DNA from: a virus
Taxonomy: Duplodnaviria; Heunggongvirae; Uroviricota; Caudoviricetes
Strand: one strand, 5' to 3'
Virus record (IMG/VR): IMGVR_UViG_2695420624_000003
Coordinates: 1 to 27,032 of that record
Length of the DNA: 27,032 nt
In this document: positions 9,397-14,981 of the stretch, one piece after another
Position numbering within the stretch: position 1 is the first letter of the stretch
Layout of the letters: each line of letters begins with the position of its first letter
Notes under the pieces: model-generated
Database searches by the model: none
The model's input: only the letters and a program-made list of their open reading frames with translations
Told to the model about the DNA's origin: nothing
Made by a program: the position numbers and the translations under genes

Positions 9397-10308
9397 TCAG
9401 TACTTAAATAAGAATTTGCTATTACTTTGAAATTGAGATGGTGTGGTTGCAATCGGACTAGATGTCGCAGCTATCTCTTCAAGTAACTCAGCTTTCCAGA
9501 CATGCCCTAGTTGCAAAGATTCACTATGCGACACTTTGTATTCTGCAGCACTAACGACTTGTTCTAAGAAAAGATCACTGTTTAGCATTTGCATACTTGC
9601 ATAAACGCCAAGGAAATGAATTTTCATTCCCATATCCATGATCATATTCCCTTCTTTTGTAAGATAACCACTGTGCGTGACATAGAATGCCGGAGAGCCT
9701 GACATTCCAGGGAAAGCAGAAATATCGACAACTATTAATTTCTTCCCATCGAAATCGATATCTGGCTCACTCGCTAAGCTTCCTGTTTTCCATATTGGAA
9801 GGTAGTGAGTCGTGTCATGATAACCATGAGGATATCCAATCATTACAACAGGAGATGAGGGGTTTATCTGGACATTAGGCAGTGTCGTTGTTTTTGAGAC
9901 TACTTTTACTCCTGTGTTTACAAACAACTCTTGAGGCAAAGGCATCAAGATAATGTCTGCCTCTTTATCTGTGGGGTGCTCCAACCACAGCGGTGAACCA
10001 TCTTTAAACAGAGGCATCGTATGTTTGAATAGTTTTCCGGTTTTATCTCTCAGCTGAATATCAATACTATCGCCTATAAATGGCTTTACACCCCTTTCGG
10101 ATGGGCTGATTCCAGTTATTACATGATAGTTAGTTGCAAGGAAAATGAAACCATTGCTATGTTGATAAAAGAACCCAGTACCTAACGACTTTGACTCTCC
10201 ATTAGACCTCAAAATTACTAAAGTAGTTACCAGAGATAGCGGCTGTACGTTTTGCATAAAATTCATCCAACATGAACTTCGATATAGGTTGTAAAAGCAT
10301 ACAATCAT
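9397..10308 (-). CDS. Trypsin-like serine protease (chymotrypsin fold), moron gene
   Basis: Catalytic-triad motifs in order: ATNYHV (His), ADIILMPL (Asp), GMSGSP (Ser). Low-GC. True start may be an internal Met (10266 or 10257). Confidence 0.65.
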   Translation of the reverse strand: MIVCFYNLYRSSCWMNFMQNVQPLSLVTTLVILRSNGESKSLGTGFFYQHSNGFIFLATNYHVITGISPSERGVKPFIGDSIDIQLRDKTGKLFKHTMPLFKDGSPLWLEHPTDKEADIILMPLPQELFVNTGVKVVSKTTTLPNVQINPSSPVVMIGYPHGYHDTTHYLPIWKTGSLASEPDIDFDGKKLIVVDISAFPGMSGSPAFYVTHSGYLTKEGNMIMDMGMKIHFLGVYASMQMLNSDLFLEQVVSAAEYKVSHSESLQLGHVWKAELLEEIAATSSPIATTPSQFQSNSKFLFKY

Positions 10309-10647: not shown

Positions 10648-10924
10648 TCGCAAAAGCCATTTTGATATCAGCCTGGGTTCTCTGTGACTCCAGTGCGATC
10701 TGCTGTTTTGCATGCTGGTTAGCCTCCAGTACTGTATTGACGATTTGTAGTGATTGCAGGACGTTATTAGTAATGGCAGTTGCCGATTTGGCATTTTGTA
10801 CAGCCTCATCAGCACGTTTCTTTTCGTGCTGATATTTGCTGTAGTAGTGGTTGGTTGACCAGATGAAAGAACAGACGACAGTTAAAAGGAAAGCAGCGAT
10901 AATCAGCTTATAGCTCAACTTCAT
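10532..10924 (-). CDS. Rz-like inner-membrane spanin
   Basis: N-terminal transmembrane helix then a charged coiled-coil-like region; located directly after the endolysin. Confidence 0.7.
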   Translation of the reverse strand: MKLSYKLIIAAFLLTVVCSFIWSTNHYYSKYQHEKKRADEAVQNAKSATAITNNVLQSLQIVNTVLEANQHAKQQIALESQRTQADIKMAFANDDCAARPVPARAAERLRRYADSLRTSFGGTTTSESDR

Positions 10925-11384
10925 TTACCACCCCACCAGCCTCTTTAAACCTGGCAATCAGGTCACCGATTTTATGTTCATACTGACCATAACCAGCGCC
11001 CGGCAGTGAAGCCCAGATATTGCTGCAACGGTCGATTGCCTGACGGATATCACCGCGATCAATCATCGGTAAAGCGCCACGCTCTTTAATCTGCTGTAAT
11101 GCCACGGAGTCCTGGCTTCTGGGAGAGAAGTCTTTCAGCCCTAGCTGCTTGCGGTAGGCATCCCACCAACGGGAAAGAAGCTGGTAACGTCCGGCTGCTG
11201 TTGATTTGAGTTTCGGGTTTAGCGTGACAAGTTTGCGAGGATGATCGGAGTAATCAGTAAACAGTTCACCACCGACAATGACATCATAACCGTGGTTACG
11301 TGTCGGTTGTCGCCCGTTATCCGTTCCTTCTGACCATGCAACCATATCCAAGAAAGCTTTACGCTGGGAATTTAGTGCCTGCAT
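10908..11384 (-). CDS. Endolysin, lambda R-like lytic transglycosylase
   Basis: Near-identical over long stretches to lambda R as recalled from memory (NSQRKAFLDMVAWSEGTDNGRQPTRNHGYDVIVGGELFTDYSDHPRKLVTLNPKLKST...). Confidence 0.9.
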   Translation of the reverse strand: MQALNSQRKAFLDMVAWSEGTDNGRQPTRNHGYDVIVGGELFTDYSDHPRKLVTLNPKLKSTAAGRYQLLSRWWDAYRKQLGLKDFSPRSQDSVALQQIKERGALPMIDRGDIRQAIDRCSNIWASLPGAGYGQYEHKIGDLIARFKEAGGVVNEVEL

Positions 11385-11387
11385 AAA

Positions 11388-11714
11388 TTACTCCTTCGAG
11401 CTACCAAATTTGTTACCGATTACTCGCATTGCAGCCCCACGAATTGCATCGACACCAATCAGCCCAACACCGCCACCAATGGCAACAGAAAGAGATTTAG
11501 GCCATCCGACATACTCAAGAGCGGATGCAAAAGTCAGCGTCAGAGCACCACAGAGCAAAATCTCGAGCGTTTTTCGTTTCCAGCCACCACCACCGCCAAA
11601 ATAGGCAATGCGCAAGCCAGCCATAACGATCGACATAATCACTGCGCCCAGCGGTGTGTCTCCACGCCACCAGCTCTGGAACAACTCCAGCCAGGTATTT
11701 GGGTTATGAGGCAT
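11388..11714 (-). CDS. Holin (lambda S-like)
   Basis: 108-aa protein with hydrophobic helices and a charged C-terminus, immediately upstream of the endolysin. Confidence 0.75.
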   Translation of the reverse strand: MPHNPNTWLELFQSWWRGDTPLGAVIMSIVMAGLRIAYFGGGGGWKRKTLEILLCGALTLTFASALEYVGWPKSLSVAIGGGVGLIGVDAIRGAAMRVIGNKFGSSKE

Positions 11715-11856
11715 TTGTAGTTATCTCTCACCTCGCTGATACAGCAGGTGCAAATTGAGGGAACATCATGTACAGCAAATTAGAAGCGGAAACGTCAAAG
11801 AAGCCGAACCAATGGATAACTGCGGAATAGACCAGGACCAACGAATCCCCAGCCCC

Positions 11857-11888
11857 AGAAACGACAAAACCCGCTCGACGGCGGGTTT
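11857..11888 (-). terminator. Intrinsic terminator upstream of the holin (tR'-like)
   Basis: GC-rich 8-bp stem AAACCCGC/GCGGGTTT followed on the minus strand by a U-rich tract (UUUUGUCGUUUC). Confidence 0.5.
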
Positions 11889-11933
11889 AAGCTGTGTGGC
11901 GAAGTAACCACTCTTAACACGATACAATAATTT

Positions 11934-11962
11934 TTGCGTACGCGTTAGCGTTTTTGTAAGAT
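11934..11962 (+). promoter_or_regulatory. Candidate sigma70 promoter for the 12000..13614 cassette
   Basis: TTGCGT, 17-bp spacer, TAAGAT, about 40 bp upstream of the cassette ATG. Read by eye only. Confidence 0.3.
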
Positions 11963-11999
11963 TAACAAATAAATCGAAAAATCATAATCGGATGATTTC

Positions 12000-13022
12000 A
12001 TGGCAAAATTAAATGCTAGCGAAAGACTCGTTACTCATCATAGTCTGACCATTGACACAAAGTTTAGAACCAAGGCAACACAAGAGGTAAAAGCCCAGTG
12101 TATATGTCCTGTTCCGGAAATGTACATGCTTGCCCCATTGATTGTTAAACAAAAGGGACTCGTTCATTCATATGATTCTGGGAATATTGTAGTTACTCTC
12201 CAAGATGTACAACTTTATCCTTTACTTCCAGATAACTCACCCACGCATATTGTCCTTCTTATTAATAGTGTTGATAAAAATGGAAGTACTACCGTTGTAA
12301 AAAATATAAATACTAATGAACGCGTTGAAATCCAACCAAAATATGAACAAGGTGAAGGCTATGAAGTTTCTACCTATGTTGTCATATCATTAAATGGAAA
12401 TAAAAGAACCTATGATATGATTTGTACATCTACCCCAGGTGTATCTACGGCCCGGTTAAATAGTTTTTTAGACAAAATTCTCTTTGAAGTGGCGAAAGAC
12501 AATGAAGACTTATTTACCGCAAAACATCCAACTAACGTTATTTCTGCAACATCAAAAAAAGAAGTAAAAATACGATACAAACCAATATTTGAATTTACAG
12601 GAATGTTAGACAAGGAGCTTTTTAATAAAATAAGCCAAAAAGGATTATCAGATGTCATATTAGTCAAGGATCAATTCGGAACAATTAATGCTCCTGATGT
12701 TAACTCACCTTACATTCCGACTGAAAGTACATTAAAATTACTTCCAAATCATGGTGACAATGTTATTGGATGGATTAAAAATGTAGCATCTCATTTCAAT
12801 AAAAAAATGAATGGTGGTTATGATAAATTAAAGGTTAAATTCCAAGATCCTGAAACAAATAAACCAAGGCAGGTTGATTTCAAAACCTCAAACATCAATC
12901 TTAATAATTTAGAAAAAACATTTATTAAGAAAAGCATTATCGATAACTTTAATTCGCGCCTGAAGGATTCATATGTTAAAATTGAGCTAGAGTTTGTTGT
13001 GAAAATGATAGATTTGATGTGA
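12000..13022 (+). CDS. Hypothetical soluble protein (340 aa), first gene of a low-GC cargo cassette
   Basis: Long low-GC ORF on the strand opposite to the phage late genes, Lys/Asn-rich, no recognised motif. Confidence 0.7.
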   Translation: MAKLNASERLVTHHSLTIDTKFRTKATQEVKAQCICPVPEMYMLAPLIVKQKGLVHSYDSGNIVVTLQDVQLYPLLPDNSPTHIVLLINSVDKNGSTTVVKNINTNERVEIQPKYEQGEGYEVSTYVVISLNGNKRTYDMICTSTPGVSTARLNSFLDKILFEVAKDNEDLFTAKHPTNVISATSKKEVKIRYKPIFEFTGMLDKELFNKISQKGLSDVILVKDQFGTINAPDVNSPYIPTESTLKLLPNHGDNVIGWIKNVASHFNKKMNGGYDKLKVKFQDPETNKPRQVDFKTSNINLNNLEKTFIKKSIIDNFNSRLKDSYVKIELEFVVKMIDLM

Positions 13023-13029
13023 GGTTATT

Positions 13030-13614
13030 ATGCCAATACTTTCAGTTTTCTCTCATCTAGGCAAGCCGTTTGGATATCTTTTTATTAAAGGTATTAGCGG
13101 CAAAGCTGCATATGATTGGGTAGCACCAATTCTACTTACTTCTATCACAGCAGTACTTTTCATTCTATTAAAAATCCCTGTCAAAGATTTATTTGATGAC
13201 AATGGTTTCATTAAATCAATCGTTTCATTTATCTCTAACCTACCAGGGTTTTATATTGCCGCTCTGGCCGCCATAGCAACTTTCAATAGAGCTGAGATTG
13301 ATTTACCATTGATTAGCAATGAAAGAAATGCCTCTATTGAAATAAAAGTAACAAAAGAAAATGGAAAAGTAGTAAATTCAGAGGAGGTTCTGACCAGACG
13401 ATTATTTCTTTGCATGCTATTCTCTTTTTTAACAGCATTAAGCATTGTTATAATAATACTTAATGCTATATTTTCACCATTAATCAATGTCTATCAAAAC
13501 AGTTTTGTTTTAATGGTTTATACTGTTGTATTTACTTTCCTCGTTTGGCAACTCTTAGTATCAACTTTCTTTGGATTATATTATCTCGGAAACAGAATTC
13601 ATATGAATTATTAA
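13030..13614 (+). CDS. Integral membrane protein (194 aa, about 4 TM helices), second gene of the cargo cassette
   Basis: Starts 7 nt after the upstream stop with a GAGG ribosome-binding site; four long hydrophobic segments. Confidence 0.7.
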   Translation: MPILSVFSHLGKPFGYLFIKGISGKAAYDWVAPILLTSITAVLFILLKIPVKDLFDDNGFIKSIVSFISNLPGFYIAALAAIATFNRAEIDLPLISNERNASIEIKVTKENGKVVNSEEVLTRRLFLCMLFSFLTALSIVIIILNAIFSPLINVYQNSFVLMVYTVVFTFLVWQLLVSTFFGLYYLGNRIHMNY

Positions 13615-13617
13615 GCC

Positions 13618-13983
13618 CTACAGGGGCTTAATAATCAACAAAATACCTTCAATCACTCCTATTGCTGCTTGAAGTTGTTTTCTGATTGACCCGTCAGAGC
13701 ATTTCCGTTTCTTTGCTATTGAACGGAGTGAAATACCGATAACAAAGTGAGCAATGATCAGTTCATATTCTTCTGGCTTATATTTCCGCATTCGCGCAAC
13801 ACAGCTGTCAATCATGATTCCTTCATCATCATCGCATTGTTGGCGTGTTTTCTTTCCATGAGGTAGTAAACCTTTAAACCCTGCAGCAACAGGCTGCCAG
13901 TCCACACCACTGTTATCTGCTGCAGCCCATGCTCCCCAGCGGTCCAATACTTCATACATATCACGCATCAACCTTCTCCACAA
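13618..13983 (-). CDS. Late-gene antiterminator Q (short QuuD-like type)
   Basis: Resembles the short Q antiterminators (VLDRWGAWAA ... AAGFKGLL ... KCSDGSIRKQLQAAIGVIEG) as recalled from memory. Start may be an internal Met. Confidence 0.75.
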   Translation of the reverse strand: MWRRLMRDMYEVLDRWGAWAAADNSGVDWQPVAAGFKGLLPHGKKTRQQCDDDEGIMIDSCVARMRKYKPEEYELIIAHFVIGISLRSIAKKRKCSDGSIRKQLQAAIGVIEGILLIIKPL

Positions 13984-13985
13984 AA

Positions 13986-14981
13986 TCAGGCCAGCACGCC
14001 AATTGCCAGCGCACGATCGATAAAACGAAATATCAGCTCCAGCTGGGAGCCATACTTCTCTTCAAATACCACGGTATCCGCATGCAGCTCGTCATGATGC
14101 TTTCTGCACAAAGGCAACACAAAGAGATCATGCGCTTTTGTACCCATTCCCCCCTGACCGTGGCCTATCAGGTGGTGGGGATCATCAGCAGGCTTTCCAC
14201 AACATGCACACGGCTGCGTCTTAACCCAGCGCGTGTACTTTTCATTAACCCAGCGGCGACGTTTTGGGCGTAACATAAAAGACTCCGGCGACTCCGGATC
14301 CACTTTCAGCGCCAGCACCTTTTTCGCCTTATCCTGGATGATGCTGGTGGCAGGAACCGAAGGCACAAGGTCACTTTCCCGGGTAACAGACGGCACAACA
14401 GGCTTCGGTAATCTCAGTGCCTTACGGGCTGCACTTTCCGGTAAGGCATCAGCCAGGTCATTACGAACCAGCCACCAGCACAGTTCCGGCATTGTCACAA
14501 CGTGACTATCATCAAAACCGAGATCCCGACGCACGACAGACAACACCCAGCGGGCACAGTTATCCGTTGCCATTGATTCCAGCCGTTCCGTGAACTGATC
14601 GCGCAGCTGGTTATCGCAGTGCCAGCACAGACGAATTGCGCCCGGAGCGTGTCGCATTGTGGTCATGTTCTCGCTGTGCCAGTCGGAATGAGGCCACTGG
14701 CAGCCTTTTTCACGAAGTAACCAGCTTTCAAGACATTCCACGCCACCAGCACGACGGATCACTGCCTCATTGCGGAACACGGCCCGAACGGCAGGATCAT
14801 CCGCCAGCGGTTGTGATGCAGCCGGAACGGCACCACTGGCGAAAGATGAATAACGTTCCGGCTCAGGCTCCAGCAGGACACGCCCCTGCATAAACAGGGG
14901 CATCAGCTCTGAACCTGGCCTGAACAATACGATCCCCATACGCGGGGCAATATCAGGGGTCAGTAGTGCTCTCACGGTCAC
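13986..14981 (-). CDS. Prophage protein with C-terminal Cys/His (HNH-like) zinc-binding motif, possibly DUF968-like
   Basis: 331-aa ORF in the nin-equivalent region; C-terminus CACCGKPADDPHHLIGHG ... LPLCRKHHDELH. Family name is from memory and unverified. Confidence 0.55.
   Translation of the reverse strand: MTVRALLTPDIAPRMGIVLFRPGSELMPLFMQGRVLLEPEPERYSSFASGAVPAASQPLADDPAVRAVFRNEAVIRRAGGVECLESWLLREKGCQWPHSDWHSENMTTMRHAPGAIRLCWHCDNQLRDQFTERLESMATDNCARWVLSVVRRDLGFDDSHVVTMPELCWWLVRNDLADALPESAARKALRLPKPVVPSVTRESDLVPSVPATSIIQDKAKKVLALKVDPESPESFMLRPKRRRWVNEKYTRWVKTQPCACCGKPADDPHHLIGHGQGGMGTKAHDLFVLPLCRKHHDELHADTVVFEEKYGSQLELIFRFIDRALAIGVLA

Follow-up and report, generated by a model that had tools for sequence, protein, structure and literature searches.

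Late-gene control by Q antitermination at pR'/tR' is textbook mechanism. In phage lambda, the Q gene lies upstream on the late strand and an intrinsic terminator stands ahead of the lysis genes S-R-Rz. Phage 21, with Q21 acting at pR'21, is the structurally described case (structures 6P18 and 6JNX; PMC6606751, 10.1101/651190), and in both phages the Q-binding element lies between -35 and -10 (PMC6606751). In the Escherichia coli K-12 prophage DLP12 (qsr'), QuuD is reported to regulate the lysis genes (Rueggeberg 2013, as cited in PMC7918800), and in Shiga-toxin (Stx) phages pR'-tR' gives a short RNA in lysogens (PMC7547250). Here we analyze a 27,032-nucleotide (nt) stretch of Caudoviricetes DNA (IMG/VR record IMGVR_UViG_2695420624_000003, positions 1 to 27,032; hereafter the window). 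Over 11300-14100 it matches Shigella phage SfII (NC_021857 / KC736978) at 100% identity in reverse orientation, and its late operon therefore lies on the minus strand. We suggest, with a probability of about 0.72 and on comparative sequence grounds, that positions 11855-11953 (minus strand) form a Q-dependent late-gene control region, pR'-qut-tR', that is parted from its Q gene by 1.66 kilobases (kb) of cargo, an arrangement that has been little described. The parts of the proposed control region are as follows.

11936..11943, strand not assigned: dyad GCGTACGC, candidate Q-binding element, at about -26..-19 of the late promoter
11919..11929, minus strand: two overlapping late -10-like hexamers, TATTGT (11929..11924, preferred) and TATCGT (11924..11919)
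11893..11918, minus strand: initial transcribed region GTTAAGAGTGGTTACTTCGCCACACA, with the predicted start (11918..11915), the pause element and a small hairpin
11915..11910, minus strand: putative -10-like pause element AAGAGT, with A2 and T6 present, then GG
11911..11896, minus strand: small hairpin in the initial transcribed region, from RNA folding
11855..11888, minus strand: tR'-like intrinsic terminator, stem-loop 11888..11867 plus U-tract TGTCGTTTCTGG

The intergenic region of SfII was aligned with that of five phages that have the Q type in common but different surroundings (1720a-02, vB_EcoS-569R4, Stx2a_WGPS2, cdtI and mEp460_4F5). A block of about 95 nt, from the dyad through the terminator, is conserved in all six phages, and homology is lost on both flanks. 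On the late strand the SfII block reads AAACGCTAAC GCGTACGC AAAAAT TATTGT ATCGT GTTAAGAGTGGTTACTTCGCCACACA GCTT AAACCCGCCGTCGAGCGGGTTTT. The block, taken as 103 nt, was matched in 2569 of 5426 complete E. coli genomes (47%), K-12 with its prophage DLP12 included, and among species-representative genomes it occurs in E. coli, Shigella and Citrobacter. Its 26-mer GTTAAGAGTGGTTACTTCGCCACACA is present without mismatch in at least 120 IMG/VR contigs, and the Stx2a phages WGPS2 and 1447 have the same block and the same slot for cargo. A full-text literature search for a 17-mer of the motif (both strands and the RNA form) returned no papers. The exact enterobacterial 26-mer also appeared in three metagenome-bin contigs of 2-4 kb (L250, L253 and L257, labeled Chitinophagaceae, Bacillota and Erysipelotrichaceae), which are probably binning contamination.

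The locus resembles lambda in the place of Q on the late strand, in the intrinsic terminator that precedes S-R-Rz and in a predicted short terminated RNA, and the likeness extends to the sequence around the start. In both phages the -10 (a candidate in SfII) is followed by an early -10-like pause element (putative in SfII) and then by GG and TTAnTTCGC (the lambda pause sequence is AACGATGGG). The lambda record reads TAAATT-TGACTC-AACGATGGGTTAATTCGC at pR', where +1 is the first A of AACGAT and the pause falls at +16/17. When SfII TATTGT-ATCGTGTT-AAGAGTGG-TTACTTCGC is compared with lambda pR' +1..+18, AACGATGGGTTAATTCGC, 13 of 17 positions in the transcribed part are identical, including A2 and T6 of the pause element and the GG that follows. 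SfII departs from lambda in its Q family (PF06530, as against PF03589 for lambda Q), in having no -35 hexamer at the late promoter, in a terminator at about +30..+59 instead of +194, and in a gap between Q and promoter that holds 1.66 kb of antisense cargo where lambda has about 80 base pairs (bp).

Phage 21 has a Q of the same Pfam family as SfII and the same order of parts as we propose for SfII: a Q-specific element upstream of the -10, a pause element at about +2..+8 and an early terminator. A 21-type promoter was recovered from IMG/VR through the published 14-mer of the Q21 binding site. It reads TTGACA-TCAT-TGAGCA-AA-TGAGCA-ACACT-ATTCGC-A(+1)-TAAGCT, with TAAGCT at +2..+7, and continues with a 9-bp stem and a run of seven Ts that stops near +50; its numbering agrees with the published C at -21 and -13 (PMC6606751). 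Where phage 21 has the direct repeat TGAGCA-N2-TGAGCA and a consensus TTGACA -35, SfII has an 8-bp dyad and no -35. The proteins differ in length as well (116 amino acids in SfII, 162 in phage 21), and only SfII residues 13-91 align. A hairpin of this kind (9-bp stem, seven Ts, ending only about 50 nt past the start) recurs at other 21-type late promoters (L222, L149, L166 and others; around GCAAATGAGCAACA), and in many of these contigs a tRNA-like sequence or a lambda-like CACAACAGGTAAGAGC directly follows it.

Of the two candidate -10 hexamers we prefer TATTGT because, by the geometry of lambda and phage 21, it is the only one that leaves space for a start ahead of AAGAGT; we hold a start within 11918..11915 only loosely. 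The TATTGT position is kept in SfII-type modules only. At the TATCGT position nearly every junction variant, whichever of the four module types it belongs to, has TAnnnT, with CAGTAT in the empty-site type-b junctions. Two other uses of TATCGT (11924..11919) were rejected: as a pause element it would have only the A-tract and dyad upstream and no -10, and as a -10 paired with AAGAGT as pause element it would lie just 3 nt from it.

The first-pass annotation of this DNA had described a strong intrinsic terminator on the late strand about 150 bp upstream of the holin gene. The hairpin is where it was placed: the minus-strand sequence AAACCCGC-CGTCGA-GCGGGTTT occupies 11888..11867 and is followed by TGTCGTTTCT, it has the G+C-rich stem, short loop and U-rich tail on the transcribed strand of a Rho-independent terminator, and 153 nt separate the 3' end of its stem from the holin ATG at 11714. 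The word strong does not stand, as the 8-bp stem (five G-C and three A-U pairs) with its 6-nt loop gives a moderate -11.5 kcal/mol, compared with -26.3 for lambda tR', and the U-tract UUUUGUCGUUU is broken up where many relatives have seven Ts. Read on the plus strand, the tail is just UUUAAG, so the hairpin should act in the late direction. As a pattern the site is not above chance, with four terminator-like sites in 3 kb against 2.3 +/- 1.2 in shuffled sequence and a z of -1.9 for the fold of the 63-nt RNA. It rises above chance because its position is conserved: the same hairpin stands at the same spacing from the 26-nt motif in 46 of 46 distinct downstream sequence variants among the collected loci, where loops differ and stems are mostly retained. 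The label tR'-like thus appears apt for a hairpin that closes a conserved promoter-leader block after a PF06530 Q and before S-R-Rz. The terminated RNA is predicted to be about 50-59 nt long, with a small 5' hairpin and the terminator hairpin. An Rfam search of the region (E up to 1) gave no family match; the Pseudomonas small RNA P9, at 11866-11934 on the minus strand, scored 18.4 bits (gathering score 43, E 0.98) and was dismissed as a chance hit due to the terminator hairpin.

Across modules, systematic variation is confined to one part of the promoter, the 8-14 bp immediately before the A-tract and -10, and this part tracks the Q protein cluster. The dyad GCGTACGC accompanies SfII-like Q at 41 loci with 15 cargo classes; GCGGTCCGC accompanies 1720a-02-like Q at 42 loci with 10 cargo classes and empty sites; and TTTACAATCGTAAA and TGTTATAACA are both found with a third Q cluster. 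In DLP12 of K-12 the dyad is TTTACGTACGTAAA. Dyad and Q cluster agree at 83 of 83 loci, and, viewed from Q, the element that varies with Q type is beyond the cargo. We therefore take the dyad as the candidate Q-binding element, with the caveat that the same association could arise from plain linkage because no cargo class crosses Q types; for that reason the match was downgraded as proof of functional pairing. A direct-repeat element (AACGCG/TACGCA) was also considered and set aside, since it fits the SfII type and DLP12 and fails types b, c and d, whereas a dyad fits all.

The second element of our reading is that, in this Q subfamily, cargo has repeatedly come to occupy the interval between Q and pR', which makes this a recurrent slot. 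In SfII, 1699 bp separate the Q stop codon from the 26-mer, and the 1.69 kb from the Q stop (13618) to the candidate -10 (11929) hold two antisense genes. In 14 loci (1720a-02 and 13 viral contigs) the site is empty: the Q stop lies 27-38 bp upstream of the 26-mer, against the dyad, so that the candidate late promoter is directly downstream of Q, as it is not in SfII. These relatives agree with the earlier proposal that the cargo sits between Q and its target. In filled loci the distance from Q stop to motif is 525-3780 bp. About 95 other loci hold at least 29 cargo classes (defined at 70% megablast coverage) with GC contents of 0.29-0.42 and nearly all open reading frames (ORFs) antisense to the late strand; the encoded proteins form about 37 groups that are unrelated to one another. 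With so many classes occupying one slot, the SfII cassette is best read as an insertion, as had been suspected. On the Q side the boundary falls within the last ~10 codons of Q, and the Q C-terminus varies with cargo class. The SfII cargo and its boundary comprise the following.

12000..13022, plus strand: cargo gene A, 340 amino acids, soluble; PADLOC PDC-M53A, E 2.1e-32
13030..13614, plus strand: cargo gene B, 194 amino acids, about four hydrophobic segments by hydropathy; PADLOC PDC-M53B, E 2.8e-54, full length
13611..13631, strand not assigned: perfect 8-bp inverted repeat TTAAGCCC-TACAG-GGGCTTAA at the Q-side cargo boundary
11934..11962, plus strand: candidate cargo promoter, -35 TTGCGT (11934-11939), 17-bp spacer, -10 TAAGAT (11957-11962)
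About 11969, plus strand: predicted start from the cargo promoter, with Shine-Dalgarno GGATGA at 11990-11995 and ATG at 12000

Genes A and B, adjacent and on the same strand over 1.66 kb, make up both components of PDC-M53, a candidate defence system, as PADLOC PDC entries are; gene A matched no Pfam family. A low-GC cassette beside the terminator had been noted before, and that description holds: GC falls to 0.29-0.36 across the two plus-strand ORFs from about 0.5 on either side, and the cassette starts at 12000, runs on the opposite strand and ends 3 nt from the Q stop. The inverted repeat spans the convergent stops of gene B (13612-13614) and Q (13618-13620) and has no U-tract beside it on either strand; it may belong to the cargo module as a hairpin that ends or stabilises transcripts. 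Elsewhere the slot (the equivalent of window positions 11960-13617, scored in IMG/VR loci L007-L126) holds a complete Kiwa system (L011 and L119; KwaA 1.9e-83, KwaB 2.3e-150), PDC-S20 with a KAP NTPase (L044), an HNH-nuclease protein resembling PDC-M68A, a cytosine methylase with HEPN and GmrSD-like partners (L063), a 1050-residue phosphoesterase-NACHT protein (L094), an AAA_15/21 ATPase and an SDH-type protease. Many cargoes have no PADLOC or Pfam match, and PADLOC found nothing in those of 569R4, WGPS2, cdtI and mEp460.

Described loci share parts of this arrangement. DLP12 has the SfII layout, with quuD, then IS5 and the porin gene nmpC antisense in the slot, then the block, whose 26-mer has one mismatch, and, 123 nt further on, essD (L127 1258-4915); its cargo is a porin moron where that of SfII is a defence candidate. 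The lc porin gene of phage PA-2 is presumably comparable in position. Stx phages likewise carry cargo between Q and S, with the difference that stx, a Q-dependent gene of the late strand, comes after tR', and the SfII cargo is placed antisense upstream of pR' with a candidate promoter of its own. The defence hotspots of P2-like prophages and P4-like satellites (PMC9122126) offer the same picture of a fixed slot among conserved phage genes with many unrelated low-GC cargoes, known defence systems among them; the SfII slot belongs to another phage group and another position, borders a regulatory site and supplies half a promoter. We found no paper describing this slot as a hotspot in the literature searched, which is not proof that none exists.

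The divergent, overlapping cassette promoter proposed in the first-pass annotation also finds a counterpart in the sequence. The cargo -35 TTGCGT lies inside the conserved block, overlaps the dyad (11936-11943) and is 5 bp from the late -10. A TATAAT-like hexamer (at least four of six matches, including A2 and T6, TAnnnT) follows TTGCGT after 16-18 bp in 17 of 18 distinct SfII-type junctions, against a rate of 0.12 for the same test along the next 125 nt. The hexamers themselves differ between junctions (TAAACT, TATATT, TAGAAT, TACAAT, TATAAT and others), and in type-b modules such a hexamer is found in 1 of 14 junctions, the background level. We consider it very likely that SfII-type cargo is driven by a promoter that straddles the junction. 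Since the conserved cargo -10 goes with a TTGCGT that overlaps the dyad, this promoter would overlap the late promoter divergently: the two are back to back and have about 40 bp in common (11924-11962). They therefore could not both be occupied, and may interfere with each other. With this, comparison supports the interpretation given in the first-pass annotation in all four of its parts.

Our proposal for how the region works is as follows. RNA polymerase with sigma-70 would start at about 11918-11915 from the -10 TATTGT, with no recognisable -35, and pause at the -10-like AAGAGT. Without Q it would terminate at the hairpin 11888..11867 and release an RNA of about 50-59 nt, which, by likeness to lambda 6S RNA and StxS (PMC7547250), may be produced in lysogens. 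The PDC-M53 genes A and B would meanwhile be transcribed opposite to the late strand from the promoter whose -35 TTGCGT overlaps the dyad. After induction, Q made from the early operon 1.7 kb away would diffuse to the dyad GCGTACGC just upstream of the -10, load on the paused polymerase and take it past the terminator, so that S-R-Rz and the morphogenesis genes are transcribed. As a diffusible protein, Q could act across the cargo without any special mechanism, and QuuD is reported to control the DLP12 lysis genes with nmpC in between (Rueggeberg 2013, as cited in PMC7918800). The start site, the sigma-dependent pausing, the binding of Q to the dyad and the Q-dependent read-through are all inferred.

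Several observations weigh against this proposal. No -35 hexamer lies 16-18 bp upstream of either late -10 candidate, and a consensus promoter scan of 11890-11999 found no promoter on either strand; the scan as a whole gave 10 matches against 9.0 +/- 3.0 by chance and is useless for placing either promoter. TATCGT, the hexamer that every module type retains, does not suit the geometry. AAGAGT carries A2 and T6, the critical positions, and matches TATAAT at only two of six. The phage 21 hexamer TGAGCA is absent from both strands of 11890-11999, where SfII has a dyad instead of a direct repeat, and the DNA-binding half of Q21 has no counterpart in the SfII Q alignment, which covers residues 13-91 alone. 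Identity of the 26-nt motif across IMG/VR loci follows from how the loci were searched for, no cargo class is common to different Q types, and the terminator is moderate with an interrupted U-tract.

The absence of a -35 bears most directly on the possibility that the late promoter is not a constitutive lambda-type sigma-70 promoter and that transcription needs Q as an activator, or another sigma factor such as RpoE, which has been reported for the promoter of essD in DLP12. In that event the hairpin would be less important and lysogens would contain little short RNA. The Q-specific dyad lies at about -26..-19, within the -35/spacer region, and the DLP12 block is homologous to that of SfII. 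The -35 region reportedly matters for QuuD action. The fold of the Q21 family resembles sigma region 4 (PMC6606751; 10.1101/651190), and control of the DLP12 lysis operon by RpoE and Q, with an RpoE-dependent promoter, is reported in work cited by PMC7918800 (its references 27 and 28). On the other hand, -10-like hexamers, a lambda-like initial transcribed region and a conserved terminator make sense only if polymerase starts without Q and is stopped, no GGAACTT-type sigma-E -35 was seen upstream of the block in SfII or DLP12, and the sequence upstream of about -32 changes with every cargo class, leaving no fixed upstream element. We regard activation of this kind as unlikely, though it is the most serious of the rival readings. 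In a related option, Q may also activate the -35-less late promoter in addition to its role in antitermination.

Conservation of the terminated transcript could also reflect a function of its own. StxS, a pR'-tR' by-product, binds Hfq and regulates rpoS (PMC7547250), and a short RNA that acts in trans in the same way might be the main product in SfII lysogens, conserved for that role and not for Q loading. The predicted RNA has a hairpin at its 5' end, then unpaired CACAGCUUAAA and finally the terminator hairpin and its U tail, and 47% of complete E. coli genomes contain the block. Yet this would be a very short RNA with an interrupted U tail and a best Rfam score at chance level (18.4 bits, threshold 43), and such a role would in any case be compatible with antitermination; as the chief explanation we find it improbable. 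The least probable explanation, to which we give very little weight, is that the hairpin merely insulates the lysis genes from early-operon transcripts that run through Q and antisense across the cargo, with the true late promoter in the 3' end of Q or in the AT-rich cargo. Q and cargo gene B do converge, with stops 3 nt apart and no U-tract terminator between them, so early transcripts should cross the cargo, and four minus-strand promoter-like matches lie within it. Such matches are at chance expectation (10 against 9.0 +/- 3.0), however, Q 3' ends and cargoes are not conserved between phages whereas the block beside the hairpin is, and empty-site phages have only 27-38 bp between Q and the motif. 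None of the three rivals fits the whole block as well as the pR'-qut-tR' reading.

If that reading holds, the region is a case of Q acting from afar: a regulator gene that is usually found next to its cis site still works with it across 0.5-3.8 kb of exchangeable cargo. The slot is common (the block is in about half of complete E. coli genomes, and K-12 and Stx2a phages have it) and diverse, which makes it worth searching for new defence genes carried by prophages. For Stx2a phages with the module, the layout bears on the link between Q type and toxin expression. More speculatively, the slot could be a built-in plug-in site for prophage defence cargo, a proposal that we think doubtful but possible, in which the conserved side supplies a -35, TTGCGT, that is also the Q operator, and in which Q binding, late-promoter firing and antisense early read-through at induction would together turn the late genes on and the phage's own defence cargo off. 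The phage would in that case escape its own defence system at induction, and the overlap of cargo promoter and proposed Q operator offers a testable hypothesis for how a prophage silences its defences on going lytic.

The surrounding late region, for which the record of the published SfII genome has no promoter or terminator annotation in 11715-11999, runs on the late strand in the order DUF968/HNH protein, Q, the two plus-strand ORFs (340 and 194 amino acids), holin S, endolysin and Rz/Rz1.

13618..13983, minus strand: antiterminator Q gene, ORF of 121 codons; PF06530 Phage_antitermQ
11715..11854, minus strand: leader from the terminator to the holin gene, with no convincing ORF
11388..11714, minus strand: holin S, first late gene; PF05106, E 6.6e-25; ATG at 11714
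10908-11384, minus strand: endolysin gene, directly after holin S, from the SfII annotation
After the endolysin gene, minus strand: Rz/Rz1; LysC/Rz1, PF23793

The Q protein matches PF06530 with E 1.2e-44 and 151.5 bits (cut-off 26) over profile positions 1-112 of 118. Its match to the solved Q21 protein is weak (E 1.6e-4), pairing SfII residues 13-91 with Q21 residues 20-99 only. The start of Q (window 13929-13983) is ambiguous: 121 codons are counted from a TTG, 116 amino acids from MRDMYEV (13968), the start common to the relatives in an alignment with five of them, and 103 in RefSeq.

Shigella phage SfIV (L248 2200-4330), a serotype-converting sister of SfII, has S, R, leader, terminator and 26-mer in common with SfII at 93% identity (92.9% for the leader region up to 11920). 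It diverges from SfII exactly at the 5' end of the motif, where it has a type-b dyad, another Q, another two-gene cargo and a transposase.

Directly after Rz on the late strand, a minus-strand ORF of 303 amino acids (9397-10308) encodes a trypsin-like peptidase domain (PF13365, E 3.7e-8). Near this position the SfII record has an IS911 fragment and annotates a terminator, and the window may differ from the record there. The ORF sits in a second low-GC patch (0.39-0.42) and may be another moron.

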